IMG/VR virus record: IMGVR_UViG_3300035208_005087
Location: 32,001 to 96,000 of that record
Source: a virus
Lineage: Duplodnaviria > Caudoviricetes
DNA: 64,000 nucleotides
Strand: one strand, 5' to 3'
Position numbers and translations under genes: made by a program. The notes below the pieces were generated by a model that did no database searches, was not told the origin of the DNA, and saw only the letters and a list, made by a program, of their open reading frames with translations. Numbering within the stretch: the stretch's first letter is position 1; each line of letters starts with the position of its first letter. Below, in pieces: positions 4,980 to 40,735 of this stretch.

Positions 4980-4992
4980 ATTAGGAGATTAT
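4980..4992 (-). promoter_or_regulatory. Putative late promoter motif ATAATCTCCTAAT
   Basis: Exact match to recurrent intergenic motif ATAATCTNNTAAT, upstream of the gp25-like gene. Confidence 0.65.
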
Positions 4993-8489: not shown

Positions 8490-8793
8490 GTGCCCCCCTT
8501 CGTAGGTGCCGTATGTTCTCTTTTTTTTCTTCACTGATCTTCGAGACCAATGCAATAAGATGCTGAATAAGGTTTATTACAGGTGATGGTGGTGCTTCTG
8601 TGGCCCGGAACCACCGAGCCCCACATTCGCCTTCCACGCCTTCAGCACCCGTTTCGCCTCGGACACCTGTTGCTCCCACAGCCCCTACATCCCCTTGCAC
8701 GCCTTGAGCACCTGGAGTAACACCTTGGATCCCTTTCACGCCTTGAGCACCTAGAGCTACACCTTGAATTCCTTTTAAATTGTTACTCATCAC
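8479..8793 (-). CDS. Short collagen-like protein (104 aa)
   Basis: Gly-X-Y run GAQGVQGDVGAVGATGVRGETGAEGVEGECGA; GGGAGG SD upstream; fills the gap between neighbours. Confidence 0.6.
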   Translation of the reverse strand: MMSNNLKGIQGVALGAQGVKGIQGVTPGAQGVQGDVGAVGATGVRGETGAEGVEGECGARWFRATEAPPSPVINLIQHLIALVSKISEEKKENIRHLRRGAHAG

Positions 8794-11700
8794 CGGTCGC
8801 CTCCCTAATCATCTTTTTTAATGGCACAATAGAAGACAGTACTCCTAAAGTCTTGTGCAAAAGGCGGTTCATCCACACCTTTCTATTGTAAGACAACCTT
8901 TCTCCACCCTCCCCAAACTGAGTCCTAAGCTGTCCTTCCCTTGTCACTAACCAACCTTTTTCCGCACCCAATACATTGGCCCTGCTCTGTTGTCTATCCC
9001 TCTCTTGCATTAACTCATAATCAGAAATCACATAGTATACCATATCCCCCTTTACACCAAAAGGTACAATATAGGGGGACCCAACTGTCAAGTTTTTATT
9101 AACAGTTAACAAAGCCCCGTAGGGGGTATCCAGTGGGAAGGTAGTACTAAACTGCACAGCACTATTAAAGCTGTTTAGCGCTGCTATAAGGTTCCCTAGT
9201 GTGCTGTACAGCCCGTATGAGTACGTTTGAGATGTAGACGGCCCCGTTATAGTCATACTGAAGATATTTGAGGAAAGACTATACCCAGGGGCTGTCACAA
9301 CCACTGTAAGTGCATCCTCCATACGAAAACCCTCCGTAGTAGACGAGGAGTACCCTTCTCCTACCAAGGTGTTATCCCACACACCATAAGGGTGCGGTAC
9401 ATAAGACCCTATGATGTTGCCGTTGTTTAAATACCCAGGGAAAACCACTAGGTTACTCCCGCCCGCTCCTAACGGTACCGAGGGGTCCTTTGTTTTATCC
9501 CCAAAGAGTACCCTAGGGTCGTATCCCTCTGTCTTTTGATTTAGCGCATCGAATAGAACCACCGCCTGCCCCGTTGCATCGTAAGCCTGACTTATCACGT
9601 CCTGTACATCGTCCCTAGCGAGAACCCCTTCTTCAAAAGCACAGATGTATTTCCCCTCGTCCGCCTCCAGATCCTCTAGTGTATCTTCGTCTCCCTCGGT
9701 AACTGTTTCTGTCCCCTCTAGCCTGGTAGTATATTCATCCTCGGCTAATACAGCCTGGGCGTGAGTAATACCTATAGCCGATGAAGCGTCCGTTTCCTCT
9801 GAAAGTTCTTCAGCACCCTCCTTCGCCTCTCCCAGTTTAATGTATAACCTGTTCGCAAGAGCTTGCGCTTCTTCTACCTTCGTCGTAAGAACGTCCTTGT
9901 TCGCTTGAGTACCCCTTTGTATTTTATTCGATATGGCTAATAGACCTTCGATGGTGTCCTTAACACTCAATCTTTTAGACCGCTCCATGTCATACAAAGA
10001 GATGCATGAGTAACTGTTCTGAGAACCTTTGTATATAACACCTTTGACAAAGCCTAGGTCTAGGGCCTCCCAGCTTGGTACCCGCACCCACGCTAAGGGA
10101 TTCCGGGACCTCAATACAAGTGTCCTTCTATACCCTGGTGTAGTCCCTGTGTCTGGAACCTCTAGGGGCCATAGCACCGACACCGCCTTATTTACTTCTG
10201 AAGCTAAACCATCCCACTTATACACCTCTTCTACGGTTACGATAAAGTGCGGGGCCATCTCCTCATTCAATTTACTGGCTATTTCCTCTAACGACCAATA
10301 TCTACTTAACAGGGGCGGTACTATACCCATTACCTCGTTTTCAAAAGAGACCTCGTGTACTTCCCATGTGCCTCCGTCATCTGTAGATTGTTGGATATAA
10401 AATTTTGTAGCAGGGTCTGTGCTCTGTATGAGCACTCTCTGGCCCAAAGAGCTTATGAGCATAGCTCCTATATTTCCTTTGTCGTCTGCAAAGCCTATAT
10501 TCCAGGGGTCTTGTCGGATCACTTCGTACGGGATACCCTCAAAGATGTCTAAGTCGGGAGGCGGGGTACTTCCCGCCCCTGGTATCTCTGTGCTAACCCT
10601 AACCGTTGTTGAAGATAATATTTCCTCTATTTCAAATAGCTCTGTCACGCCCTGTATTTTTATCTTATCCCCTACAGAAACACCCTTAGTGTCCTTATCA
10701 AAATTAGCATACAGGCTGTACACCCTGCCGGACCCACCCTCATTGTACACAGCACAGGTATCAAAAGGCGTGTAACTCTCCGCAAACCGCCCATCCCCTA
10801 ACGGGGCGTCCTTAGCATAGTTCAATGGAAAAAATTTAGACACCCCAAAAGTGCTTTGATGATTTACATCGTACCATGTATATATATCACCCCCTCGGGT
10901 GTTGCCAATAACAAAACCCTTCAGTGCTTCAAACTCTTTGGAAAAGGATTGCATCCTCGTTCTATAATACTCAGCGATTTTCCACAGTAAAGTGGCAGTA
11001 AGATATAAGTCTCGTACCAAAGAAAAATTATCCTCCTGCACCCCTTTCAATAAACCAGTACTACTGTCTGCGGACATCCCGGCACTCCCCTGTGTCTGGG
11101 GTCCCCTTAGTGCTTCTTTTTTCTTTTCCAGATAAGGAAGCACCCATGCGCCTAAGTAGTCCCACTCTTCTTTTGTCTCTATGATGAACTGGTCTCGTGC
11201 TAGGTAATCGGTCGTGACTCTGAGCTGTGTGCCTTGTGATATGCCTACAAACCGTTTTCCTTTTACCTCTATAGCACCGGTTACCTGGCGGGGGCACGCA
11301 TAGGACAAGAAGTAGCGGGCACCTTCTTCATGCCCTTCGTTGAGCACTATTACGCCACCCTCAGCTAAGACATAATCGGTTTCGTTCTTCAAAAATTCTC
11401 GGGTACTGTCCTGCTGCCTTATTATGGTAGGTAGGACCCTCAGGGTATAGGGCAACTGTTTAGGGTTAAAACCTTGTTCTATAGGAAAGATACTCTCCGC
11501 TGAGATGTCTCCTATATCAGCCCCTTGGAGATATTCAAAGACCACCCCTGGTACCCCTGTCTCTATATCCTCTAGGACTTCTTCTAAACTTCTACCTACT
11601 AGGGTGTAAGGGCCATATGTTACATCCGCAACACCCTCCTCCCTTTTGGTTAAGATTAATCCCTCCTGATTTTGGGATATGGAGAATCGGGTCGGAGGTG

Positions 11701-27961: not shown

Positions 27962-30796
27962 CTACAGAGTACTTCGTAAGTAATGTGTTGCTACGATCCA
28001 GTCTACACCAAAGATAGGCACATACCGTACGGCTACGTTGATTACAGAGGGATCCTTATCATCTTGACGGACAACAAAGTTGTTGCTGAAGTCCGCAATA
28101 AGATTAAGACTCTTAAGAGAGGTAAAGTAAGATGCCAAGGCTGTTTTGATTTCATTAGAAACCCCACCCAGACCCTTACGTCCGATAAATCGGTCACCCA
28201 CTCTACGAACACCTTTCTGCACTTCATGCTTTGTTTCCACGATACGTGGGTTCCTAGTAAGCACTGAGGTCATGTCGGTGGTCAAACCCATCAACACTTT
28301 GATATTGTTGTTCTTATTTTCTAATACGGTCACCCCTTTTTGAGCAACTAAGGCTGCTGTAGCTTTTGTCAAACTTCTTCCTAACCTTTGGAAACCTACT
28401 AGGGATATGTTTGTCAAAGGTGTAGCTACATCATACACAGGAGAAACGTCGGCGCCAGTCATGGCCACTGCAACATACTCCCCGCCTACCAAGATGTCTT
28501 GGTCGACACCGTTAGAGTCTGGGATAGTTATCACAGCGCTATCTGGGTACACCAAAGTGATCAATTCAGATTTTAAAGCCTTTGCATAGTTTAATGCATC
28601 CTCAGGAGTAGACCCTGCTGCCAAACCAATAAAGGATGTCCTTTCATTTTGCATACGAATGCTCGATTGTTGGGCATTAGATGTACGCAAGTAGTTAAGC
28701 ACTTGTCTGTTCGCTGTCAACACACTTAATAATGCAGGACGAGTCCCGTTACTTAGCGGTTCGTTGAAAGAGTCGATTGCTTCCACATAAGATGCAACAG
28801 AGGCGTCATTACTGTTAGGCGCTTTACGTACCTGCTTTACAGCCAAGGCTTGGCCACCATTCAAAAAGTACAGATTAGCTGCCATTACCAAAGGATTGTT
28901 TTGTGCTAATGGACCAAACAGATTTTGTACTTCAGGAAAGGATGTAACATATTTCACTGAGTAATCTGTTTTTTCCTTATCAAAGGTCACATAGTACACA
29001 TCACCTACTCGAGGTTCTTCGTCTTGTACCATGTTAAAAGTTTGGATAATGGCGGTATCTTCAAGGCCCACATTAATGGTGTCTTCTACGCGGAAACGGA
29101 CACCTGGGATACCTAGCTCTACGTTAGTTGATACGGTAAACCGTTTACTCACATTAAACACCAGTGTTCCTGCTGTCGCGGCTTCTAATGCAAAAGTGAA
29201 ACCAGTTACAGAATCCTTATAGGTCTTCCCAACCATGCCAGTGTTTACTGCACCAGAACCTGTAGCGTTTGGCACACTAGAGGTAACTGTGAACTCACCA
29301 GAGGCATCTACAGTTACTGTCACTACTTCGTCCCCGTATACACGGGAAGGGGTCACGTATGCATTACTGGTTCCTCCTACTCCGTCCCAGGTAACAGTTC
29401 CTGTATCCAGGAAAGTCGCAGTGGAAGTACTAGAAGGGTCTAAAATAACTTGACGAGCGCTGCCGTATGCGTCACCGATTACGGTGTATTCGCCAACACC
29501 CTCACCGCCCGATACCTTGTTCCGTACTGTCCAGGTGTCATCTGCCAAAGTGTTTACAAAGAAACTAGCAAAAACCTTGTCCCCTGGTGCAGGTGCACTT
29601 TGAAGAGTAATGTTCCTTCCTTCTACCTTTGTTACCACTACTTGACTAGCGCTTGCCTCATCTGCACCTACATACACAACTAAATCGTCATGAGGGTTAG
29701 CCGTGCCGTTGGAAACAGAAGTCAGTGGAGTACCTTTACCGTCCCCCTTTACAGGCTGATAAGGTAAGGTGTATATTTTAGTGACGGCGGTAGTCGTAGC
29801 CTGTGCTTCTACCATGTAGTAACGGTAGTCCACCATACTAGCATCGACTTTGTTGTCGTTAAAGGCATCCGCGCCCACTTCATTGATCCCAGCAGAAACA
29901 GCTATAGAGCTGCCCCAATGGATCTCATTGCCACGGGCTAAAACGTAATCTTTGTTTTTAAAGAAATCCGTGCGGCCTGGGTCAAAACCCACTCTTGCGA
30001 TATTGGAAACGATAGCAGCGGGCAAGATATCTGCAGTGTCTTGGAAATTGTTAGTAAAATAGCTAACAAGCACCTCTGCACCATCTGCAGGGGCATTAAC
30101 TAGCGTGAATGTCCCAAAACCCCCAGAGATACTATCAATATCAACAAGGGTGCCATCTACTTGAGCTTGGATAACAGGTACCTGTATCATTACTCCATTT
30201 ACTTCGTTGGTAACCACAGCTCCGATACTGGTACTAGTGGCGTTATTTCCGCCATTGTCCCCTGCCACGATACGTGCAGAGTCCACTTTAAACACTCGGT
30301 TACTCCCGTCCGCTTGTAGAGAAAGATCTTCATTCTCTACATAGGTGTCACGTCTTTTGAAGTAGTAATTTAGTTCAACAATGTCCCCTTGCGCGGGAGG
30401 GTTCACTAAGGTAATCAAACCTGTGGCCGCGTCTATAGACTGCACAGGCACGCCCTCTCCATTTACCACTACTACCACATCGTTAGGGTTAGTAGCATAA
30501 GTGCCTTCACCATCGTTCAGCACTAGCGGGTACTGTCGTGTATAGAAGTCCACATTTACACTGTCTTGTACATTCCCACGTCCATTGCTTGACGCAATTT
30601 CCCCTAGGATGATGTTTGCCGCACTAGAGGACGACCCTCGCACCATTTCAAAAGCTTCAATCCTTTCTTCTTCTTGGCCTACAGCTATTAAAGCAGCATA
30701 CCTTGCCTGACCTGCAGCAGTAGGGCTGGGAGCTTGAACAAATGTTCTAGTGTATGTCCCCGGAAACGCAAATTGTTCTAGTGGTCCGATTGCCAT
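27962..30796 (-). CDS. Contractile tail sheath protein with inserted beta-sandwich domains (944 aa)
   Basis: N-terminal FPGTYTRT; VQNLFG...AANLYFLNGG; LVYPDS; C-terminal FIGRK...DPSVINVAVRYVPIFGVDWI. Confidence 0.9.
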   Translation of the reverse strand: MAIGPLEQFAFPGTYTRTFVQAPSPTAAGQARYAALIAVGQEEERIEAFEMVRGSSSSAANIILGEIASSNGRGNVQDSVNVDFYTRQYPLVLNDGEGTYATNPNDVVVVVNGEGVPVQSIDAATGLITLVNPPAQGDIVELNYYFKRRDTYVENEDLSLQADGSNRVFKVDSARIVAGDNGGNNATSTSIGAVVTNEVNGVMIQVPVIQAQVDGTLVDIDSISGGFGTFTLVNAPADGAEVLVSYFTNNFQDTADILPAAIVSNIARVGFDPGRTDFFKNKDYVLARGNEIHWGSSIAVSAGINEVGADAFNDNKVDASMVDYRYYMVEAQATTTAVTKIYTLPYQPVKGDGKGTPLTSVSNGTANPHDDLVVYVGADEASASQVVVTKVEGRNITLQSAPAPGDKVFASFFVNTLADDTWTVRNKVSGGEGVGEYTVIGDAYGSARQVILDPSSTSTATFLDTGTVTWDGVGGTSNAYVTPSRVYGDEVVTVTVDASGEFTVTSSVPNATGSGAVNTGMVGKTYKDSVTGFTFALEAATAGTLVFNVSKRFTVSTNVELGIPGVRFRVEDTINVGLEDTAIIQTFNMVQDEEPRVGDVYYVTFDKEKTDYSVKYVTSFPEVQNLFGPLAQNNPLVMAANLYFLNGGQALAVKQVRKAPNSNDASVASYVEAIDSFNEPLSNGTRPALLSVLTANRQVLNYLRTSNAQQSSIRMQNERTSFIGLAAGSTPEDALNYAKALKSELITLVYPDSAVITIPDSNGVDQDILVGGEYVAVAMTGADVSPVYDVATPLTNISLVGFQRLGRSLTKATAALVAQKGVTVLENKNNNIKVLMGLTTDMTSVLTRNPRIVETKHEVQKGVRRVGDRFIGRKGLGGVSNEIKTALASYFTSLKSLNLIADFSNNFVVRQDDKDPSVINVAVRYVPIFGVDWIVATHYLRSTL

Positions 30797-30924
30797 TGCT
30801 TTTTCTCCTCATTTCTGCCTACGCTCTTTTCCAGTTGCTAGAGGTTTCACTCTTACTGACACCCCTGTAACGGGCATAAAAAACACTACAGGGCATTAAA
30901 AAATCTATAATGCACTACAAGGGA

Positions 30925-30937
30925 ATTAGAAGATTAT
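30925..30937 (-). promoter_or_regulatory. Putative late promoter motif ATAATCTTCTAAT upstream of sheath
   Basis: Exact motif; 21 bp (30925-30945) are identical to 35632-35652. Confidence 0.7.
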
Positions 30938-30959
30938 CCAACAGAGTCTCGGGGAAAGT

Positions 30960-31391
30960 CTAAACGGCTAGTTTCCGGAAACCTTTTTTATCCCAGGTTT
31001 CCTTACCCTTTGCCTGGGACACAGCTTCCGAATACTCTTTAGCCCGTGCCTTGCGTTTCTGATCACCAAGTAATGCTTCAGGGTTGAATGTTTGTCCTGG
31101 TTTTATACCAAGGTCTACTACATTAGCCCCCGCTAGCCTCTTTTCTTTTTTCTTAGTAAGGTCTTCCCACTTCTTGTGAGCTGAGGCCCCTACTACTTTA
31201 TCGATTTCGGATTCCGTGTAGGCATCCTTCTTCGTAGTATCCAAAGGAGTGCTGACAGCAAAGGTGTCTGCTCCTAGTCTGCGAGTCTCACTTCCGCAGC
31301 GAGGGCAAATCTGATCATCTTTGTCCGCCACCTTAGCGAGCTTTTCTGATACCAGATTACATCCGGGGCATTTGTATCTATAAATTGGCAT
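30960..31391 (-). CDS. FmdB-family zinc-ribbon protein
   Basis: MPIYRYKCPGC...CPRCG...RRL signature. Confidence 0.8.
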   Translation of the reverse strand: MPIYRYKCPGCNLVSEKLAKVADKDDQICPRCGSETRRLGADTFAVSTPLDTTKKDAYTESEIDKVVGASAHKKWEDLTKKKEKRLAGANVVDLGIKPGQTFNPEALLGDQKRKARAKEYSEAVSQAKGKETWDKKGFRKLAV

Positions 31392-31421
31392 GTGAGTCTC
31401 CTATTTGTTTTGTTTTATTTT

Positions 31422-32831
31422 TTAGAAAAGATACGGATACGTTGTAATGGGGTACTCCACTAAAAACTCAGGAGTATCTTGGGCGTCATAGAGGCTCACC
31501 TCTTGGACCCTTCCCCTCTTGATTCTTTCTACCGCCTCTACATCGTACGTGTACTTTTTCAATTTTATTACGTATGGTATAAACTTCTTCCACTCGGTCA
31601 TTACCTCTATATTGAGGCTACTTTCAAAATACATTGCTTGCGTGGCATCATCATACACAGATTCGGATTCATTTGACGGTGTGCAGTCCTCTATGGTGAT
31701 TCCTTCGTTTTTTAATAGCTCCCTTCTATTCACCCAAATGTCCGAAGACAAATGATCAGCTATTTCCGAAGTCGTCAAAGGATCTCTTGAAAATACCTTC
31801 CACCCTAAGGTCATGTTATAATGACCACCTTTAACATGTGCGGCTTTTTCTCTTCTAGCGGTCAGTACCACACACATCTTATCACCCTTCTGTCTCCTAG
31901 AACCAAAGGCTAGTACCACCCCTTTAATGGCCTTGTCATTATAGGAATACTCCGTAGGTATATTGAAAGGTCCTAGAGTGTCCCCCTGCCACCTATAAGA
32001 AGCGTACAGGGTTGTCCCTGCCTGTATCGGCTGCAAAAATGTCACTAACCCGTCTGGCGTTACCGTGTAATCCACATCCCTGTCTAAAAACAGAAGGGGG
32101 GCACGGGGTGAGGACCTCGTATAAAGGGACAGCACAAAATCTATCAATACTGGTGTCTGGCTTAATTGCACAGTAACTTCCGAACCAGTGGTCTTCTCTA
32201 CAACAACCTCTCCATCTTCTGAGTACATGGGGGTTATTATAAAGCTATTTTCCTCCTCCATCTCCAAGAAATAAAAACCGGGACGAGCCACGTCCTTATA
32301 AAAATAAGACACCTCTACTGTCTCGGAGGGGTTGACTATCGTTGTCAACTGTACCTCTCCTGTAAGAGGATCAACACTCCTAGGTAATATCTGTACTCCA
32401 TTTATGTGTACTTCTACCTGACCAATATCCGTTAGCAATAAAGGGTTTTGCGCTCCTTTAGTTATTGGCTTTTTACTAGTGTACACTTTGGTTCTGTCGC
32501 TACTTAGTGTAGCAGTAACATTTTCTTTATTCACCCACTTCGAGATATTGTAGACATCCTCCCAGACCCATTCTATACTTGTCCCCGGGTGGTTCCCTAC
32601 CTTAGTTATAGTTACCATGGACATCAATGTCCCAAAGGTGTTGTCAGGGCTCAAGTTTATCCTCGTAGCGCTCGTATCATACAGACTGACCCCTATTTGC
32701 GGACGCTCTTTGCCCATATGGTACTTGCCATACGCCTTTACGTCCGTCTTGTATACAGGGTGCCTTTTTAACGAGTCATTCAACTCATCCATAAATCTTT
32801 TTTTAATTACTTGGTAAAGATTGTTTTCCAT
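31422..32831 (-). CDS. Putative tail completion/terminator (neck) protein with inserted beta-sandwich domains
   Basis: Position upstream of the sheath; ERPQIGV, WKVFSRDPLTTSEIAD, YFESSLNIEVMTEW. Start probably MENNL (32831) after GGGGTG. Confidence 0.55.
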   Translation of the reverse strand: MENNLYQVIKKRFMDELNDSLKRHPVYKTDVKAYGKYHMGKERPQIGVSLYDTSATRINLSPDNTFGTLMSMVTITKVGNHPGTSIEWVWEDVYNISKWVNKENVTATLSSDRTKVYTSKKPITKGAQNPLLLTDIGQVEVHINGVQILPRSVDPLTGEVQLTTIVNPSETVEVSYFYKDVARPGFYFLEMEEENSFIITPMYSEDGEVVVEKTTGSEVTVQLSQTPVLIDFVLSLYTRSSPRAPLLFLDRDVDYTVTPDGLVTFLQPIQAGTTLYASYRWQGDTLGPFNIPTEYSYNDKAIKGVVLAFGSRRQKGDKMCVVLTARREKAAHVKGGHYNMTLGWKVFSRDPLTTSEIADHLSSDIWVNRRELLKNEGITIEDCTPSNESESVYDDATQAMYFESSLNIEVMTEWKKFIPYVIKLKKYTYDVEAVERIKRGRVQEVSLYDAQDTPEFLVEYPITTYPYLF

Positions 32832-32849
32832 GACTAAGCACCCCATTAT

Positions 32850-32887
32850 AAAATAGGGAATAAGGGTATGGTACCCTTATTCCCTAT
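32850..32887 (-). terminator. Perfect 16-bp-stem hairpin/terminator after the actin-like gene
   Basis: ATAGGGAATAAGGGTA-CCA-TACCCTTATTCCCTAT then TTT on the minus strand. Confidence 0.7.
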
Positions 32888-32890
32888 GGA

Positions 32891-33904
32891 TCATTCTGAC
32901 TCTAAACTAGCAGCAATTAACAATCCCTTAGCCACATCGGCTAAAGGGTCGTTTGCCATACGTATTTCTGACACTTCAAAAGGGAAATCCTTTATCTTCG
33001 CAAATTCCCGTTTAAAGAACTCTAGGAAATTGCCGGCTTGTGATGTCCCACCAGAAATTATAATAGGTAAGGGCTTCTCAATCTGCACGGCACTCTCCGC
33101 CCTGCGGAATTCCTTTTTGATGCTGTCTACCACATAGTTAATTAAATTCTTGTAGTACACGACCACCGCTTCCCGTTCCCGTTCTGTCTTAGGGTCCCCT
33201 TTAATTGGGTCTAGTAGATCTACTCCCTGTTCTTTGATAGCCATAATTTGTGCCTGAGTCTTGCCTGTAGCCCTGGCCGCTCCTTCATCAATCCAGTCCC
33301 CACCACGAGCTACCGAGAACTTCATGCCCGCTACGGTTTGGTACAATAAGGCAGCATTAGTCATACCCGCACCAAAACTTAAACCTAGGGCAGTGAACTC
33401 TTCCGCCTCTGCGTTAGCGTACACTACTGCGGTAGCTTCGTTCATAGCTTCTGCTGTATACCCAAAGCTAGTCAGGATCTTTTTAAACATTGCTTCGTGA
33501 TAAAACACATCCGCATCCTTATCTAAAGGTGCCGCAGGTACCGAGAAGTACAGTACCTCTCCCTTGGGTGAGGGCTCTCCTACTACTTCCTTTAAAAGTA
33601 ACATCAAAATCTTTTCTGCTTCCCGCTCCCCCGCTGCGATCACGCCCTGGGATAGCGGCCTTCTTACTTCTTTTTTTAAAATGTTGGCCATTCTGAGGGA
33701 GGCGTCCCCTATGATGTACAAAGTGTCTTCTTTTTCAATGAACGGCACCTTGCTCATTTTTAGCATGTTTCGAGTGCTCTTTTCATTATCTATGTCGATA
33801 AAGGCATCTCTTACCGAACGTATGGATACGCTTGCCATTTCGGTTTCATCTGAGTATGTAGCCCCTACTAAAAAGCAGGTACCCACGTCGAGTCCTTTTG
33901 CCAT
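32891..33904 (-). CDS. Actin-like ATPase (volactin/MamK-like family), 337 aa
   Basis: All actin-fold motifs are present: phosphate1 GLDVGT, connect1 MNEATAV, phosphate2 SFGAGMTN, RGGDWID, adenosine ISGGTS, connect2 DPLADVAKG. Confidence 0.9.
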   Translation of the reverse strand: MAKGLDVGTCFLVGATYSDETEMASVSIRSVRDAFIDIDNEKSTRNMLKMSKVPFIEKEDTLYIIGDASLRMANILKKEVRRPLSQGVIAAGEREAEKILMLLLKEVVGEPSPKGEVLYFSVPAAPLDKDADVFYHEAMFKKILTSFGYTAEAMNEATAVVYANAEAEEFTALGLSFGAGMTNAALLYQTVAGMKFSVARGGDWIDEGAARATGKTQAQIMAIKEQGVDLLDPIKGDPKTEREREAVVVYYKNLINYVVDSIKKEFRRAESAVQIEKPLPIIISGGTSQAGNFLEFFKREFAKIKDFPFEVSEIRMANDPLADVAKGLLIAASLESE

Positions 33905-33907
33905 TTG

Positions 33908-34591
33908 TTATGTCTCCTTCTGTTGTGTTTTATTTCTTAAGGCTTTTAGCCTATTTAATGAGTTCCTCACTGTATCCCCTTGTCCCACACTAGTTGTCTG
34001 CAGGTGGATATGATTGGCCATATCTGTTACCGCTAGATTACCTGGGATGTACACCTCCTCCCGGAGCTCCCTATTCTCGCTACCCCTAACACCTCGTGCT
34101 GGCGAGGTGACTCCAGGACCTGCCACTGATATCCCCGATAAAGTCTTTTCCATTTTTGTGGCCGAGGACTCTATAGCTTTTACGGTTTCGGTACTCTGCC
34201 TACTCACCATCTCCTGCATATCCTCGAATTTACGATCTATTTTCTGTAAAAGTTCAGATAATCCTTTTTCTCCCTCTTCGGGCTGAGTCTCCACACCCTT
34301 CTCTTTGAATGAGGACACTTCTTCTAACTTTTTTTCAAAACTAGAAATTTTAGAAACTATTTGCTTCAATTCTTCTTGATCTTTCTTTGGGGCAGGTTTT
34401 GGAGGGGGCACTAGGGGGCCTAAACCCTCATCCGTGATAATGGCCACCCTCCCTTCTTGTGCTGCCTTATTTAGATCGGCAGAGTGGGATAGTTGCTCTT
34501 TAGTATAAGTTTTAACTTGACCAAAATAAACCCGATCATTGAGATCGGGTATTTCTACAGTTCTAAAACTTATGCCTTTGACTTTTATCAT
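33908..34591 (-). CDS. Coiled-coil protein, putative partner/adaptor of the actin-like protein (227 aa)
   Basis: Small N-domain, Pro-rich linker, coiled coils and a basic amphipathic C-terminal helix (VRNSLNRLKALRNK); ends 3 bp before the actin ATG. Confidence 0.6.
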   Translation of the reverse strand: MIKVKGISFRTVEIPDLNDRVYFGQVKTYTKEQLSHSADLNKAAQEGRVAIITDEGLGPLVPPPKPAPKKDQEELKQIVSKISSFEKKLEEVSSFKEKGVETQPEEGEKGLSELLQKIDRKFEDMQEMVSRQSTETVKAIESSATKMEKTLSGISVAGPGVTSPARGVRGSENRELREEVYIPGNLAVTDMANHIHLQTTSVGQGDTVRNSLNRLKALRNKTQQKET

Positions 34592-34637
34592 GTTTTATTT
34601 TGGCCCCCATTATCCCCGGGGGCTTTAGGGTTTTTTA

Positions 34638-35576
34638 TTACGCTAGATACCGAGAAAGTTTGTCTTGTTTGACTAAAGACGCGTTTTTCCAGTCAGAGTA
34701 GTCTTTCACCGCTACTGTGTCCTTTTTACCGTCTTCTGGAGAAACTCTCACATGGGTGGGGTTTCCATCCTTGTCGTAGCCCTTAGCTTGGTACTCTTCC
34801 AGTTTGTGTTCTTCGGTTTGAATGTTTTCCATTACTTGCTCGAACATCTTGTTCAATTCTTTCATGCGATCCTGTGGTTTCTCTGCACGGCTTTCCGCAG
34901 TCATCAGAGATAGTAACAAAGCTGCTACCGCTGGGATATTTTTCATCATACCAGCTTCTTTGGTTTCACCGTCTTCTTCGTCTGACGCTAACTTTAAGTT
35001 TTTCAACAAGCGTTCGCCTTCTAAAGCTTTCTTTTTCAACTCTTCTTCATACGCACGTTGTTCTTCATCAACAGATAGATCCACACCTGTGTACTTGTCC
35101 TTTATATGGGGGTCTGCGGCAGGGGCTTGTTGCATGATTTTTTTCATTTCTGCAGCAAGTTGTTTCACAGCGTCTTTACCTAACCCTGCAACTTGTTTTG
35201 TTACAGTTTTAAGATCCAGGCCTGCTAATACTTCTTGGCCTTCTGCAGGTTGAGTTTCTTCAGATTTATCACCTTCTGTGGCCTCATCTTCCATCTCCGC
35301 AGCGTTCACATAGTAACGAGCACTTCCTTCTGTTGGCATGTAGGACATAGTGCCACTTTCACATGCAGCACATTTGATAGTGTCATTCACATGTACAATG
35401 AGGTCGTCACTAGCGATTTTCTCACTTGCGGCGTACTTCTTAATGGTAGCGTTGATCTCTTGTAAACTTTTGCTGTGCCCACAATCGGCGCAAGCAAAAA
35501 CGGTAATCTTTTGCGCTTCTGCTTCCAATGTGTCAGCTAATTTTAAAAGCTGTTCTGCCGCGGTAACTAATCTCAT
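34638..35576 (-). CDS. Zinc-ribbon-containing protein, possible internal head protein (312 aa)
   Basis: CADC and CAAC pairs; K-x-A-[ASG] motifs; AAGGAG SD and a promoter motif upstream. Confidence 0.65.
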   Translation of the reverse strand: MRLVTAAEQLLKLADTLEAEAQKITVFACADCGHSKSLQEINATIKKYAASEKIASDDLIVHVNDTIKCAACESGTMSYMPTEGSARYYVNAAEMEDEATEGDKSEETQPAEGQEVLAGLDLKTVTKQVAGLGKDAVKQLAAEMKKIMQQAPAADPHIKDKYTGVDLSVDEEQRAYEEELKKKALEGERLLKNLKLASDEEDGETKEAGMMKNIPAVAALLLSLMTAESRAEKPQDRMKELNKMFEQVMENIQTEEHKLEEYQAKGYDKDGNPTHVRVSPEDGKKDTVAVKDYSDWKNASLVKQDKLSRYLA

Positions 35577-35631
35577 TTCTAAACTCCTTATACAAAAATT
35601 TTGTTAAAAATTGTAAAACATGTACAAAAGG

Positions 35632-35644
35632 ATTAGAAGATTAT
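35632..35644 (-). promoter_or_regulatory. Putative late promoter motif ATAATCTTCTAAT
   Basis: Exact motif; heads the 312 aa - 227 aa - actin unit. Confidence 0.7.
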
Positions 35645-35659
35645 CCAACAGACACTTCT

Positions 35660-37054
35660 CTAAAGCGTTATATTCTCGAAGGTAACCGTGCGGCCAGTCT
35701 CCCTCACACCCTCTGGTACCGTACTTTTTTCTGGAATAGTCGGGCTAGCATCCGAGGGTCTGTTCTCCCTAAATGCGTTCCAGGCCTCCGGTGGTGCACT
35801 CTCTCCTCCTCGTATGGGTATCAGGTAAATCGGGTCTGTTTGATCTACATGAGCTAAGGTAAAGTGCTGCTGGTAAATCGCCCCTCGACTTCCTTGAGGA
35901 TTAGGTCTGTTTACGAAGTACCTATCATTGTTTGCCCGTACTACTACATCCCTGTCATTTAATAAGGGTTCTGGCCCTGTCCAGGTATTCCAGTCATATG
36001 TGATGTGAAAGCCGGCATCCATTAGGTTTACGGCTTTCTCAGTCTCCGGTGGGGCTATTAATATATCATAAGGGCCTTCGTAACCACCTATGTACCCTGT
36101 ACCGTAACACTTAGGGCACCCCCCATTCTTAAGACCGACTCCTTTAGAGTACCCAAAATCCTCATTGTAGCACCCACACCTTTGGCCGTTCCATTTTCTT
36201 AAAAAGAGTTTTACTCTCTCCCCTTCCCTCTCTAATAACCACTTGTTTTTTCTGATGGCTTCTTTCCACACCCAATCGGTTTTCTCCATTTGGTATGGAG
36301 TTTGAGCCTCCACCTCAGAAATAGGGGTCTCTATGGTCACCCCCTTACTCGGATCGAAAGCTACCGTTGTTACCTTGTAGTATAGCTTCCTGTGCATATC
36401 CGTGGCAATCAGCCCATTCAAGTATGTGTAGGACACCCTAATACCCCCAGTAAGAAGATCGGGCAGGACAGGTGGTACGTATGCATTTTTTATAGGATCA
36501 TATGTCCTATTTGTGTTCAAGTATATGAGCCCTTGCTCTGCATGTATCTTAAAAGGTATTACTGGGACATAGCCTTTCCCATCTCCCGCATCCACTTCTA
36601 TTAGGATATGCGAGTAATTTACCTGTCCTTGGCTATTGGTGCCTGGGGCTATCAAGGGTTTGTGCATCGTGTGAAAAAACCACTTTTTCTCCGCGTTATT
36701 TGCAGGGTTTAATCTGTTTAGGACATCTTCCCTCTCTACAAAAACCTCTGATGTTTGATCCCTCACAGATTTCGCCGAAAGGGGTGCTACATTTATTTTA
36801 GTGTACTCTCCTGCCGGTGTATCAAAACACCGATACACATTCACCCCTAGTATGTCTAGACCACTATTGTATGGTATAGCTGCCGGGTTATCCCAGCGGA
36901 TATCCAACACTCCTATCAAGTAAGGGCTCGTCACGTGTACGTTTTTTGGAGGTAATGGTAAACTCACTGGGTCGGAGGAACCGCTTCGATAAGGTAGATT
37001 AAAACCAGGGCTACCCATCCCTTGTACTAAACTGGTTCTGTTCATCTCTGCCAT
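35660..37054 (-). CDS. Putative head-closure/neck protein with FN3-like N-terminus and Cys4 zinc finger (464 aa)
   Basis: IRWDNP...GVNVYR...YYKVTTV FN3; GERVKLFLRK..GQRCGC...CPKCYGTG; WTGPEPLLNDRDVVV...RYFV resembles stopper beta-barrels. Confidence 0.55.
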   Translation of the reverse strand: MAEMNRTSLVQGMGSPGFNLPYRSGSSDPVSLPLPPKNVHVTSPYLIGVLDIRWDNPAAIPYNSGLDILGVNVYRCFDTPAGEYTKINVAPLSAKSVRDQTSEVFVEREDVLNRLNPANNAEKKWFFHTMHKPLIAPGTNSQGQVNYSHILIEVDAGDGKGYVPVIPFKIHAEQGLIYLNTNRTYDPIKNAYVPPVLPDLLTGGIRVSYTYLNGLIATDMHRKLYYKVTTVAFDPSKGVTIETPISEVEAQTPYQMEKTDWVWKEAIRKNKWLLEREGERVKLFLRKWNGQRCGCYNEDFGYSKGVGLKNGGCPKCYGTGYIGGYEGPYDILIAPPETEKAVNLMDAGFHITYDWNTWTGPEPLLNDRDVVVRANNDRYFVNRPNPQGSRGAIYQQHFTLAHVDQTDPIYLIPIRGGESAPPEAWNAFRENRPSDASPTIPEKSTVPEGVRETGRTVTFENITL

Positions 37055-37057
37055 TTT

Positions 37058-37849
37058 TTAATCCCTTAGGGCTACAACCTTTTTACCTATCTTCATGTAT
37101 GCTTCGTCCCCAAATGTTCCTGTATAGTAAGAAACTCTCATGGTTATACCTTCTTGGACCTGCGGGATATCCAAACCATACCCTCCCCACACAAGAGTAT
37201 TCTCCACGACAAGGAAGTCTATACCTTCTCTCTGAGAGGTAGCCTGGGCTATGTTTACCGCAGTCCCAAATACGGGGGCTTCTACTAAAGTTACATATTT
37301 GTTTTGTACATCGGTAGCTGTAAGGGTGATATATTCTGTCACTATCCTTCCCGAGGGGCTTGCGTCCCCTACCAGATAAAGGCTACTGATTCTTGTGGTC
37401 GACGGGGTTCCTAGCGGGTTACTACTAGAAACGTACGCTGCCCACCCTTCTACTATATCCGAATACTGTACATCTGACACTTTAAAGGATACCCTTTTCT
37501 TCACACCTCCCGCTGTTACCCGTGCTCCCAGTGTGTCCCCTTTTACATGCAATGTTGCAGAAATTTCCTTGGCCGTTCCCAGCATTAATGTCTCGGACCT
37601 TCCCTCATACCCTGGGACTGTGTAAGTGGCCCCTCCATCTTGCGTACTTAATATCAGGGACTTTGTTCCTACTACCGCCCGATCTGAACGTATTTGGAAG
37701 CACACCTCATGGTGGGAGTTTTTTAAACATATCTCTAGAGCCGAGAAAACATTAGGAGTACTAACTTTAAAAGACATGGACACCCCTGACAACCCTGGGT
37801 ATTCCAAGGCCATGTTTGTCAGTACGTAGTTCGTGCGCATTTTGAGCAT
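37058..37849 (-). CDS. Virion structural protein with C-terminal beta-sandwich module (263 aa)
   Basis: QREGIDFLVVENTLVW...EGITMRVSY module, shared with the 82-aa and 957-aa proteins. Confidence 0.6.
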   Translation of the reverse strand: MLKMRTNYVLTNMALEYPGLSGVSMSFKVSTPNVFSALEICLKNSHHEVCFQIRSDRAVVGTKSLILSTQDGGATYTVPGYEGRSETLMLGTAKEISATLHVKGDTLGARVTAGGVKKRVSFKVSDVQYSDIVEGWAAYVSSSNPLGTPSTTRISSLYLVGDASPSGRIVTEYITLTATDVQNKYVTLVEAPVFGTAVNIAQATSQREGIDFLVVENTLVWGGYGLDIPQVQEGITMRVSYYTGTFGDEAYMKIGKKVVALRD

Positions 37850-37861
37850 ATTCCTGCCTCC

Positions 37862-40735
37862 TTAGGTGTGTACGATATTTAATGTTTTTGCTGCGAAATT
37901 TACGGACACATCCGTTTCTTCTTCTATCAACCAGTTAATGGGAGAAAAACCAGTTACCCCGCTGGCCCCTTTATACACCCACTGCTCTCTGGGTAAAAAG
38001 ATAACGCTTTTCCCCACCACACCGGTAAAGAGGGGGTAGTCCCCTGCTAGCACACATATTACTGTCGCAGTTTCTTGAAGGGCTCTTTGTATGGTCCTAT
38101 ATGGATTCCCTAAACTACCATTACCTGTATCATCGTTACCGTCCACTGTAACGAACACCTTATCCCCTGGTATATCTTTAGGGTCAAAAGGTTGTATGGC
38201 TAGTCTATCGGTTCTCTTAAGTAAGGGGATCTCCGGGCGCGAGTCATGGATATCCAAGCGGGACGGGGCAGTCTCGAGTATTTGCTCATCAAAGTATTGT
38301 GTTCTTTTAGACACATGCGGTGTCTCTGCCCCCATTATAGGGGACACAGTATCTGCGTCCGCTTTATCTAAAGCGTGGCTCAGTCTTCTCACCGGTTTAT
38401 CTAAATTTCCGTCCCACACATAATCGTGCCCTATTTGAGACATGTACAGATTTTCGGATACCCTGTTGTACACATCCACCAAATTCTCTAAGGCGCCTAT
38501 ATCTGGGGGCTCTCCCTTGTATGTTCGATCTACTTGGGATAAGTCTCGTTCCCTGCTGCTAAGTGAGTCCTTATTACGAGTAATATAGGATGGATTTCCT
38601 GCCAAACGGTTGGGGCTAGCATCGTCTATACTATAATCAAAATCTACGGGGTTTTTATAGAGGGGGTCGCTGTTTATATTTGATGGGTCAGGAGAGAAGT
38701 TTAAGGACGACCCAAATATGTTATTGTTTTTGAACTCGGCCAGAAAGCCGGATGACATGGTAAGGGCCTGAATATTGGTTAAACTGTTTGAGTCTAGAAC
38801 AGTGTGCCCTTCCGTGGTACTCCCTCCTATCAACTCAAAAGTTATCCTTAATACATCTCCTAATTCCATAGTATCCCAAAGGTATGGGTTTTCTGGCTCT
38901 GTTGCAGGGTAATTCGGGTTCTTGTTTAACTGTAGGGTGTCATCTGTCACTACCGTAAACTCTGTACCGTAAAAAGCCGATGTACCCTCTGTATCGTTGA
39001 TGACCACGGCGTAATTACCCGATGGGCTCTGTAAAAAGTTGAAAGGAAAGGGGCCTATGGTGCCGGTGTCTATAAGTGCTTGGTCTACTGTTATGTACCG
39101 CACCCCATAAGACACTGCGGAGGCTACATCATCTATTTGCACATTTACTAGATTATCCAGGGTGTTATGCCTAAACTCCAGTTTCTTAACCGACTGGACC
39201 CTGACCCCTAACTCAGCGGCTTGTCCCAATATGCTGTATGCCACCTCTGATATAGCGCTACCTGCCCATAGGGGTTTTAAAGCTATGGCCTTAACAGTTG
39301 TTGTTGCCCCTATTTGAATAGGTGTCGTGTACTCTGTAGACGAACCATCCGGGGTATCCCCGTTCAGTGTATAGTAGATTATTGCATCACCAGGGTCTGT
39401 CGCCAAGGATACTGTTTGTGGAAGAAGGTAAGACCCCCCGTCCACATCAAAGGTCGGTGCCGCCACCGTCCCTGTGATTGTATATACCCCTGTTAACACC
39501 TCGGAGTCTGTCCACCCTGTTTTCTTTGCAAGGGCTTTGAGGGTCACAGATGCACCTACGGTGACAGATCCCGTGTATAGGGTGGAACTCGTTGTGGGTG
39601 TAGTCCCGTCAGTCGTGTAGTAAATGGACACCCCTGGTGTAGGGGTGGTTATTTCCACCGCCTGCCCTGTAATATACACGCCCGGTGCAACACCAAAAGC
39701 CAAAGGCTCTATTTCAAACACATATGTCTCAGAAACTACCAGACTATCTAGCATCCCGGCTTTGACGGCTATAGCCCTTACTTGCTGCGAGACTCCTACT
39801 TGGAATTCTCCACTATACAAAGGATCTGCCGTTGTGGGTATCTGACCATTAGTTGTATAGTAGAGAGAGGCATCTGGTGTTGCCGATGTTATTTCCAGAG
39901 AGAATTCGGTATTAAACGTCCCTGACACCACACTAAAAATCGGGGCGTCCACCGCCACTACTATGTGCAGGTTCGCCGAGTAACTATAATTCCCATCAGA
40001 CACGGTAACACTATTATCCCCTTGATCTACTAGGGGTTGGTCTACCTCTACGGTAAATATATACCCAGTTCTTACCGAGGCCACCTGCGTCCCATTTATG
40101 GACACTTCCGCCGTGTCCAAATCTAAAACAGCATTTGTTGTATCAATAGTGAGGGTATTTTGAAAAGTTAGGCTGTTATCCGGGTCTACTGTGATGTAGG
40201 AGAATGGCTCCTCGTAAGTTCCTGTAAAGAGGTTGCTTTCTGTGTCTTCATAGTATAGGCCAAGGGATTCTCCCTCTATGTACTCTGTGGACGCTGTTAC
40301 CTGTCCGTCTTCTCTATCCCAGAAGTATTCTACTCCTAAGCTATCCTCAAAGAACAGGTACCTTACTGTGTCAGTAGTGTCTACATAGCTCAGGGTGTGC
40401 TGGCTGCCTGTAACATTGTAAACGGACATTGAAACCGCATCAGTAACTACTACAGTGTCCACTACTAAATTGAATCCATTTTCTAGTAAGTCAAAGTCAT
40501 ACTTAGTAATCACCCCGTTGGATAAAATGTACAGTAAGAAAGTCTCTTCCGTGCCATCCACTATTTTTAGTGCTGAGTAATCTTGGGCCCCTCCCATTAT
40601 AACATGGGAGAAGCTATTATACTCTACTGTCAGTGTACTTCCGTTTGCTATATAGAATAAGGCGGTCCCTCCCTCGTAGGGAACCTCTATTGCAAAGGAG
40701 GCTTCACTGTAGGATGGTACTTGGGTTTCAGACAT
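37862..40735 (-). CDS. Adhesin-like protein: 3x chitobiase/beta-hexosaminidase C-terminal (Fn3-associated) domains, choice-of-anchor-Q-like segment, DUF1565-like motifs (957 aa)
   Basis: Three IYYTTDGxxP...Y...(V/L)(K/R)A(I/L)A repeats; NINSDPLY...PDIGALE; VFVTVDGNDDTGNGSLGNPYRTIQRAL. Confidence 0.75.
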   Translation of the reverse strand: MSETQVPSYSEASFAIEVPYEGGTALFYIANGSTLTVEYNSFSHVIMGGAQDYSALKIVDGTEETFLLYILSNGVITKYDFDLLENGFNLVVDTVVVTDAVSMSVYNVTGSQHTLSYVDTTDTVRYLFFEDSLGVEYFWDREDGQVTASTEYIEGESLGLYYEDTESNLFTGTYEEPFSYITVDPDNSLTFQNTLTIDTTNAVLDLDTAEVSINGTQVASVRTGYIFTVEVDQPLVDQGDNSVTVSDGNYSYSANLHIVVAVDAPIFSVVSGTFNTEFSLEITSATPDASLYYTTNGQIPTTADPLYSGEFQVGVSQQVRAIAVKAGMLDSLVVSETYVFEIEPLAFGVAPGVYITGQAVEITTPTPGVSIYYTTDGTTPTTSSTLYTGSVTVGASVTLKALAKKTGWTDSEVLTGVYTITGTVAAPTFDVDGGSYLLPQTVSLATDPGDAIIYYTLNGDTPDGSSTEYTTPIQIGATTTVKAIALKPLWAGSAISEVAYSILGQAAELGVRVQSVKKLEFRHNTLDNLVNVQIDDVASAVSYGVRYITVDQALIDTGTIGPFPFNFLQSPSGNYAVVINDTEGTSAFYGTEFTVVTDDTLQLNKNPNYPATEPENPYLWDTMELGDVLRITFELIGGSTTEGHTVLDSNSLTNIQALTMSSGFLAEFKNNNIFGSSLNFSPDPSNINSDPLYKNPVDFDYSIDDASPNRLAGNPSYITRNKDSLSSRERDLSQVDRTYKGEPPDIGALENLVDVYNRVSENLYMSQIGHDYVWDGNLDKPVRRLSHALDKADADTVSPIMGAETPHVSKRTQYFDEQILETAPSRLDIHDSRPEIPLLKRTDRLAIQPFDPKDIPGDKVFVTVDGNDDTGNGSLGNPYRTIQRALQETATVICVLAGDYPLFTGVVGKSVIFLPREQWVYKGASGVTGFSPINWLIEEETDVSVNFAAKTLNIVHT

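Follow-up and report, generated by a model that had tools for sequence, protein, structure and literature searches.

A volactin-family actin and a putative docking adaptor encoded in the tail module of a large phage

What does an actin-like protein do among the tail genes of a phage, and to what would its filament be coupled? This question is raised by a stretch of 64,000 nucleotides (nt) of viral DNA, hereafter the window, which comprises bases 32001-96000 of the IMG/VR record IMGVR_UViG_3300035208_005087 (128,544 bp). In the window three neighbouring genes encode a protein of 312 amino acids (aa) that we call g312, a 227-aa protein that we call the adaptor or partner, and a 337-aa actin. The last of these genes encodes a genuine actin of the volactin family, and the product of the middle gene is co-inherited with the actin throughout its clade. 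With somewhat more confidence than doubt, we read the pair as a late-expressed phage actin filament and its docking adaptor, which would organise or position virion assembly. Since the 128,544-bp record is only about 28% complete as estimated with CheckV, its source points to a phage of several hundred kilobases. The genes around the actin locus are all on the minus strand, and the unit itself holds the following features:

35632-35644 (-), promoter-like motif ATAATCTTCTAAT, 55 nt upstream of g312
34638-35576 (-), g312, first gene of the unit, 312 aa; open reading frame (ORF)
33908-34591 (-), adaptor (partner), middle gene, 227 aa; ORF with homologs found by an iterated hidden Markov model (HMM)
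33913-33920 (-), Shine-Dalgarno sequence GAAGGAGA for the actin, inside the last codons of the adaptor; read from the sequence
32891-33904 (-), volactin-family actin, last gene, 337 aa; identified by PF25216, BLASTP and an AlphaFold2 (AF2) model
32853-32887 (-), intrinsic terminator, a perfect 16-bp hairpin followed by the T-run UUUUAUAAU, starting 4 nt past the actin stop

The actin and its transcription unit

An initial annotation of this locus had proposed, from the letters alone, a resemblance of the actin to haloarchaeal volactin rather than to MreB or ParM, and database comparisons bore this out. The protein matched the Pfam family Volactin (PF25216) over the whole profile (1-321 of 321) with 255.5 bits against a cut-off of 35 (E 1.1e-75), an assignment that agreed in a search of the whole contig, and it was 39% identical over 340 aa to the volactin of Halobellus rufus (P0390; BLASTP, E 5e-84), one of the haloarchaeal volactins retrieved by a search from an archaeal-like representative of the family. 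The Pfam search gave no match to MreB_Mbl (PF06723) at E <= 0.01, no PHROG was assigned to the protein, and phmmer against the PDB sequences returned no match and no MreB at E <= 1. The volactin signatures were all present, namely the phosphate-1 motif DxGT, the catalytic Glu, the phosphate-2 motif SFGAG and the adenosine motif GGTS, and residues D6, G8, T9, E156, S176, G178, G180, G285, G286 and T287 were invariant or close to it among 297 sequences from the viral search and 121 from the archaeal search. The AF2 model (predicted local distance difference test, pLDDT, 87; predicted template modelling score, pTM, 0.85) had an actin fold with four subdomains. Foldseek ranked MamK (TM-score 0.72), MreB, actin and BeeR (TM-score 0.72) highest, and an aligner independent of Foldseek, in which residues 1-337 were aligned, placed BeeR (8r2n, Z 26.4), MreB (4cze, Z 24.1) and crenactin (4bql, Z 24.0) above the ParMs (Z 15.7-20.9) and the nucleotide-binding domains of Hsp70 proteins (Z about 20-22; BiP, Z 21.9). 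A 371-aa actin fold was also seen in gp506 of Bacillus phage G (BFVD G3MAP7), with a TM-score of 0.60 and 10% identity to the window actin; by sequence gp506 is no volactin, and its gene lies far from the phage G tail module.

Actin, MreB and ParM have an Asp at the phosphate-2 position, which in the window actin is taken by Ser176. We considered this Ser as the mark of a stable filament dead for hydrolysis and rejected it as a phage-specific trait: a Ser was found at the position in 293 of the 297 viral-search and 118 of the 121 archaeal-search sequences, and since it is family-wide and the volactin of Haloferax volcanii is dynamic in vivo, Ser176 is no sign of an inactive phage ATPase. The H. 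volcanii protein forms dynamic filaments whose tips touch, or are anchored to, the membrane; it acts in cell shape transitions, and the factors that bind it are unknown (PMC10869688). The text of Supplementary Fig. 8b in that paper prints 'VDFGAG' as the phosphate-2 motif of H. volcanii, in contrast to the Ser of nearly all archaeal volactins counted here. The phosphate-2 Asp, rare in the family, is kept by P0163, encoded on a 330-kb phage-like contig (GCA_024449895.1) in a region of replication and nucleotide metabolism (NrdD, RuvC, RecA), outside the structural modules.

The layout of the unit agreed closely with the initial annotation. The complete 337-aa and 227-aa frames were found, separated by 3 nt between the adaptor stop codon (TAA, 33908-33910) and the actin ATG (33902-33904), with the strong Shine-Dalgarno sequence GAAGGAGA lying 8 nt before that ATG. 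The perfect hairpin that ends the unit had a folding energy of -24.2 kcal/mol (z -4.2). The motif ATAATCTNNTAAT at 35632-35644 (-), which sits 15 nt past the stop of the preceding gene, occurred in 10 copies in the window, all on the minus strand and at gene boundaries ahead of structural operons, among them those at 4980, 30925, 35632, 47853, 49178, 49926 and 63605 of the window; 1.6 copies were expected from shuffled sequences, and none of 100 shuffles reached 10. We regard ATAATCTNNTAAT as a candidate phage-specific promoter, and its position ahead of structural operons is the ground for reading it as a late one. Since the motif precedes g312 and the terminator ends the actin gene, 32853-35644 is, to judge from the sequence, one insulated transcription unit of three genes, g312, adaptor and actin. 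The unit had been described as one of two genes; the pairing of actin and partner stood, but the 312-aa gene belongs to it as well. The proposal of late expression fits, as the unit looks late-expressed because the promoter-like motif is common to it and to the structural operons.

The adaptor and its C-terminal tail

The architecture foreseen for the partner, a small N-terminal domain followed by a linker, coiled coils and a basic C-terminal helix, was confirmed by its AF2 model, in which two helices (aa 70-97 and 108-153) follow a confidently folded N-domain, and a disordered stretch separates them from a C-terminal helix (aa 206-226). Its two conserved parts are:

34424-34591 (-), aa 1-56, soluble N-terminal domain, pLDDT about 96, topology b-b-b-b-a-a-b
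33911-34066 (-), aa 176-227, C-terminal module, the strand motif 'VYIPG' and the basic amphipathic helix 'NSLNRLKALRNK'

A word-based database search with the adaptor gave a single relative (95% identity), and no Pfam family was found on any part of it. When an HMM was iterated over the fetched loci, homologs were detected in 49 loci, in 36 of them directly upstream of the actin (position -1). The family consists of a conserved N-domain of about 55 aa, a hypervariable middle that is either rich in Pro or coiled coil, and a conserved C-terminal module with the consensus '[FY][IV]P[STND]…' and, at its end, a basic amphipathic helix ('L[KR]xL[RK]K'). We call this module the tail, and an HMM of it singled out the adaptor as the sole tail-bearing protein in the 128-kb contig (E 1e-14). 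A wide structure search with the adaptor model returned a list filled with coiled-coil matches, and the ESM Atlas gave only unnamed viral clusters, the N-domain being modelled as part of the whole adaptor. Natural fusions of partner and actin were looked for as Rosetta-stone evidence and this candidate was rejected: the N-terminal extensions of longer family members are ParB-HTH (helix-turn-helix), HU, Zn-ribbon or unknown domains and do not match the partner HMM.

The tail was not restricted to this family of adaptors. In other viral clades the actin gene belongs to head modules, close to the portal gene or to a capsid gene of the T4 type (Gp23), and the partner HMM had no match in those loci. 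In all of these clades the genes at -1 or -2 of the actin nonetheless encode small, unrelated proteins that end with the same C-terminal module (for example 'DFIPS…VEELKKLQK', '…ALKDLKKMK', '…QKDKLKKLR' and 'PFIPR…AKKLRKVK'), and most of them have one N-terminal transmembrane helix. An expanded tail HMM matched nearly only the C-termini of genes at -1 or -2. In the T4-like clade it also detected, at E 7e-6 to 5e-4, a second soluble tail-bearing protein that lay outside the training set, which suggests that in the clade with the T4-type capsid one filament may serve two clients. This second protein has 113-134 aa and is encoded downstream of the capsid gene (L063:14103-14504, L078:8077-8418 and L057:14786-15127).

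We then compared the tail with the neighbours of cellular volactins. In five of six archaeal loci a protein with a CdpA_N domain is encoded directly upstream of volactin; in H. volcanii this neighbour is HVO_2016, which adjoins volactin and for which a shared function has only been hinted at (PMC12126565). We scored all 769 ORFs from seven cellular loci with a tail HMM whose training set was limited to phage partners. Its four best matches all fell in C-terminal regions:

rank 1, CdpA-like neighbour, L097, E 3e-4
rank 2, CdpA-like neighbour, L095, E 5e-4
rank 3, a nearby Salinarchaeum protein, E 5e-3
rank 4, the protein upstream of a bacterial chromosomal volactin, E 0.019

The five archaeal CdpA_N tails have in common the tandem motif '[ST][VI]D[DE]x[LV]xxL[KRQ]xL[KRQ]GG … DDQxAALxxLR'. 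Because three of the five score poorly with the phage HMM, the link between the docking tail and the archaeal CdpA-like neighbour is suggestive and not proven.

Homologs of g312, the first gene of the unit, were found in 28 loci, usually two places upstream of the actin (-2). The members of this family have a conserved N-terminal helix and a CxxC...CxxC Zn-ribbon (about 100 aa together), an acidic low-complexity stretch that varies greatly in length and, at the C-terminus, a short motif, 'IDYDSLxRY' ('LxRY'). A hydrophobic segment at about aa 212-228 of the window copy is not conserved in the family, and neither a Pfam nor a PHROG family was found on g312. The protein may be a regulator or a second client.

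The slot in the tail module and the spread of the family

The genes on both sides of the unit were identified by comparison with the cultured relative Tunturi_5 and with phage G:

35660-37054 (-), 464-aa paralog of the tail terminator; matches Tunturi_5 gp322, 'minor tail protein', E 2e-19
31422-32846 (-), 474-aa tail-terminator-like protein, directly downstream of the unit; matches the Tunturi_5 'tail terminator' in tblastn, E 2e-8
30960-31391 (-), 143-aa Zn-ribbon protein of the tail backbone; PF09723, and Tunturi_5 gp325, E 5e-19
27962-30796 (-), 944-aa tail sheath; matches phage G gp178 and the Tunturi_5 sheath

The neighbours had been named neck and tail-completion genes; of this, the tail-completion assignment of the 474-aa gene held, as its match is a protein annotated as tail terminator. 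The same order was seen in about 50 of 78 viral loci, with a protein of about 460 aa, g312, the partner, the actin, a protein of about 450-480 aa, a Zn-ribbon protein of about 140 aa and a protein of about 930-1000 aa. The 464-aa protein, the 474-aa terminator and the 944-aa sheath have a repeated domain in common, as do gp322, gp324 and gp326 of Tunturi_5, and one HMM of this domain collected 141 proteins in 54 loci, at positions -3, +1 and +3.

Tunturi_5 has the same backbone (gp322, gp324, gp325 and gp326), and its slot between gp322 and the terminator holds only an unrelated 159-aa protein and no cassette of g312, adaptor and actin. A slot in a conserved tail backbone is thus filled by the cassette, which is no obligatory part of the tail. 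The earlier description of the actin as embedded in the late structural module was right as to its place in the tail module, but the cassette is separable and not an integral part of the tail. The Zn-ribbon protein at +2 was considered as a third component of the system and rejected: it is part of the tail backbone and occurs also in Tunturi_5, where the actin is missing. Haloarchaea also have a Zn-ribbon gene by volactin, with HMM similarity to the +2 protein at E 1e-4 to 3e-3, and this is probably the generic similarity of CxxC proteins.

The cassette is nonetheless near-universal in its clade. Among loci fetched by their tail terminator, a sampling for which an alignment of 8 terminator sequences was used, the actin was found in 29 of the 30 that had at least 1.5 kb of upstream DNA, and the partner in nearly all of those. 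The actin is near-universal in this clade of roughly half-megabase phages. In the actin tree all tail-module loci fell into one clade (support 97, 42 rows), and the partner was present in every member with enough upstream DNA, so that the conservation of the upstream gene with the actin, on which the initial annotation had staked the pairing, was upheld. The tree is unrooted; no clean MreB for an outgroup was found in the two metagenome-assembled genomes (MAGs) described below. The actin was the most conserved gene of the module in all 11 comparisons made (79-40% identity, against 68-32% for the sheath and 61-28% for the terminator), which indicates that it is under strong purifying selection. 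The place of the cassette beside the tail terminator was kept down to about 40% actin identity.

A word-based search with the actin found 2,119 relatives, and when 1.84 billion representatives were searched with a profile, 1,494 clusters (at 50% identity) matched at E <= 1e-3, 521 of them at E <= 1e-30. The clusters of the family in the ESM Atlas belong mostly to Uroviricota, with one archaeal cluster and one of a bacterial HU-fusion; on the sequences collected, the volactin family is mostly viral. Among GenBank phages it was found only in two uncultured huge phages (485 kb and 595 kb); phage G and Tunturi_5 had none in that search.

Several members of the family have unusual architectures. 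Inteins (Intein_splicing/Hint, often with an HNH endonuclease) interrupt the phosphate-2 loop in 20 of 150 family representatives, including some of the tail-module clade (L066:~8001-10100, L104 and L110; proteins P0126, P0148 and P0134); inteins typically insert at conserved sites of important genes. P0122 (729 aa) is a tandem double actin with two complete volactin domains. On a 247-kb bacterial metagenome contig (L088:6860-10676) a plain volactin adjoins a ParB-HTH-volactin fusion of 891 aa whose tail is long and rich in Pro; '…EDALAKLKRMQGG…' stands at the end of the 403-aa protein encoded upstream, and the surroundings look cellular, with McsB/McsA, orotidine monophosphate decarboxylase and an RND-MFP (resistance-nodulation-division membrane fusion protein) nearby. 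Further fusions are HU-volactin (P0240, with an Atlas cluster in Acidobacteriota), Zn_ribbon_4-volactin (P0269) and volactin-Wzz/GNVR/P-loop kinase (P0188, from a Planctomycetota MAG). Contigs with partner and actin also occur in two MAGs, L082, L084 and L086 in 'Candidatus Altiarchaeales' WJJK01 and L083 and L085 in KSB1 QNDG01. They carry the phage-type adaptor tail (E 4e-16 and 9e-15), one MAG has two such loci, and they are most likely misbinned phage contigs.

Function and relation to known systems

On the reading that we favour, the actin would polymerise into filaments, by analogy with the H. volcanii volactin in vivo. The C-terminal module of the adaptor, strand motif plus basic amphipathic helix, is predicted to dock onto the actin, and the soluble N-domain, carried on a long variable linker or coiled coil, would bind cargo. 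The likeliest cargo would be a phage assembly intermediate or an assembly site, because the cassette has a fixed place before the tail-terminator and sheath genes and carries the promoter-like motif of the structural operons; the filament would in this way organise or position virion assembly late in infection. Because the same tail in other phage clades, and what looks like the same tail in archaea, is joined to a membrane anchor, the system looks modular, with a constant actin and docking tail and an exchangeable domain for anchor or cargo.

Several observations weigh against this. Only about 28% of the phage genome is in hand. The fold and ligand searches for the N-domain of the adaptor gave no identification, its best Foldseek lead being weak (YqbF, 2hjq, E 0.49). 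Tunturi_5 and phage G build their tails on the same backbone without the cassette, so that tail assembly as such does not need it, and timing alone may account for its position. The cellular matches of the tail HMM are modest (E 1e-2 to 3e-4) and concern a short helical segment of biased composition, and on the five archaeal CdpA_N neighbours, three of which score poorly, E ranged from 3e-4 to 0.4. The Hsp70 nucleotide-binding domains stand only 2-4 Z units under the best actins.

Among the alternatives, the one that survives best, although we regard it as unlikely, has the filament enlarge or reshape the host cell, block its division or build a compartment for very large particles, with the late genes providing only the timing. 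Volactin does affect the cell shape of H. volcanii, the adaptors of other phage clades are membrane proteins, and the cassette looks like a dispensable insertion that brings its own promoter-like motif and terminator; but the adaptor of the tail-module clade has no transmembrane segment, in its N-domain in particular, and the cassette has stayed by the tail terminator across the whole range of actin divergence noted above. Rather improbable, too, is an ATP-driven assembly chaperone without any cytoskeleton, in which the actin would act like Hsp70 in neck or tail assembly and the partner would be a co-chaperone or substrate adaptor. The Hsp70 homolog of closteroviruses builds virion tails, and a constant place among the tail genes (or, in other clades, among the head genes), the Z scores of the Hsp70 nucleotide-binding domains and the top BFVD matches, which are viral Hsp70s, all suit such a role. 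Against it stand the 39% identity to a member of a family with filaments in vivo, the best structural matches, which are polymerising actins, and the 337 aa of the protein, which hold the actin fold alone with no substrate-binding domain. The membrane-anchored adaptors of other clades and of archaea suit a tethered filament better, and relatives assemble the same tail backbone without the cassette.

A role in positioning DNA, in which the adaptor would bind phage DNA and the filament would move replicating or packaging genomes as in ParMRC or AlpAC, is very improbable in our estimation. The folded domain, linker and C-terminal docking helix do resemble those of actin-plus-adaptor systems, bacterial relatives have ParB-HTH or HU fused to the actin, and the volactin of one phage-like contig lies in a replication region. 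Yet no DNA-binding family was common to 40 adaptor homologs in the Pfam search and no family was found in more than one of them, the lone match of DNA-binding type being a weak MerR_2 HTH in one sequence (E 0.0061). The N-domain, with 8 basic and 8 acidic residues counted from the sequence, is net neutral, no iterated or centromere-like repeats were found in 32700-35800 or in 30000-38000, and the unit is part of structural modules in the viral clades examined. Since a common DNA-binding family and centromere-like repeats are both missing and the N-domain is neutral, a function in DNA partition is unlikely. That the actin, the adaptor or both are packaged in the virion, ejected into the next host and act early is highly unlikely, for although structural genes surround the unit, a terminator of its own insulates it.

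The favoured reading, a late filament with a docking adaptor, can be extended further, and we put the extension forward only tentatively, as doubtful: the tail may be a universal volactin-docking peptide of archaea (on CdpA-like HVO_2016), bacteria and phages, and the huge-phage clade may have a late actin cytoskeleton with interchangeable soluble and membrane adaptors that organises virion assembly. If so, phages would have a second, actin-based cytoskeleton beside the PhuZ tubulin spindle, and a volactin-binding factor of haloarchaea would be named. Few phage cytoskeletons have been described, namely the PhuZ tubulin and the AlpC actin of one prophage, and volactin has so far been studied in one haloarchaeon only, yet its family is mostly viral; a literature search that included reviews and surveys of jumbo and huge phages found no paper linking volactin to phages. 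The actin looks important to the phage, being near-universal in its clade and conserved above the sheath, and the conserved docking tail predicts the coupling of a filament to cargo or membrane. The question touches on the assembly and arrangement of very large virions within a small cell, and the archaeal CdpA-like motif gives haloarchaeal cell biologists a specific stretch of residues to mutate.

The closest known system is VolA (HVO_2015) and HVO_2016 of H. volcanii. The actins have in common the family PF25216 and the phosphate-1, SFGAG and GGTS signatures, and both systems have an upstream gene on the same strand whose product ends, after a long linker, in a C-terminal helix 'D..L..L[KR].L[RK]'. 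They differ in that the genes described here belong to a phage, probably of a bacterium, and lie in a late tail module; that the archaeal neighbour has a CdpA_N anchor of four transmembrane segments, whereas the phage adaptor has an unrelated soluble domain of 56 aa; and that the phage unit has a third gene (Zn-ribbon/acidic), while the archaeal protein acts in cell-shape transitions. Among phage systems, AlpA of prophage CGP3 in Corynebacterium glutamicum reportedly links phage DNA to AlpC filaments and supports replication. There too a phage-encoded actin-like protein is co-transcribed with an upstream adaptor gene, but the unit in the window has no DNA-binding signature, stands in a structural context and encodes an actin of what is probably a different family. 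ParMRC, AlfAB and Alp7AR likewise combine an actin-fold polymer with an adaptor in which a linker joins a folded domain to a C-terminal docking helix. Their adaptor genes lie downstream of the actin and the phage one upstream, the phage unit has no RHH (ribbon-helix-helix) domain and no centromere repeats, and ParMs are more distant in structure (Z 15.7-20.9). The likening of the partner's C-terminal helix to the tail of ParR or AlfB is therefore limited to architecture, where a conserved adaptor-like element is indeed present, because neither a recognisable DNA-binding domain nor centromere-like repeats are present. PhuZ of the Chimalliviridae, the nucleus-forming jumbo phages, is thought to move capsids and to centre the replication compartment. 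It is also a phage-encoded cytoskeletal polymer of large phages, but it has a tubulin fold and no known docking adaptor of the tail type; no tubulin gene was found in the 128-kb fragment. BeeR, MreB and crenactin, the best structural matches of the phage actin and all three filament formers, are only 16-18% identical to it in sequence, and at E < 0.01 it had no MreB_Mbl match.

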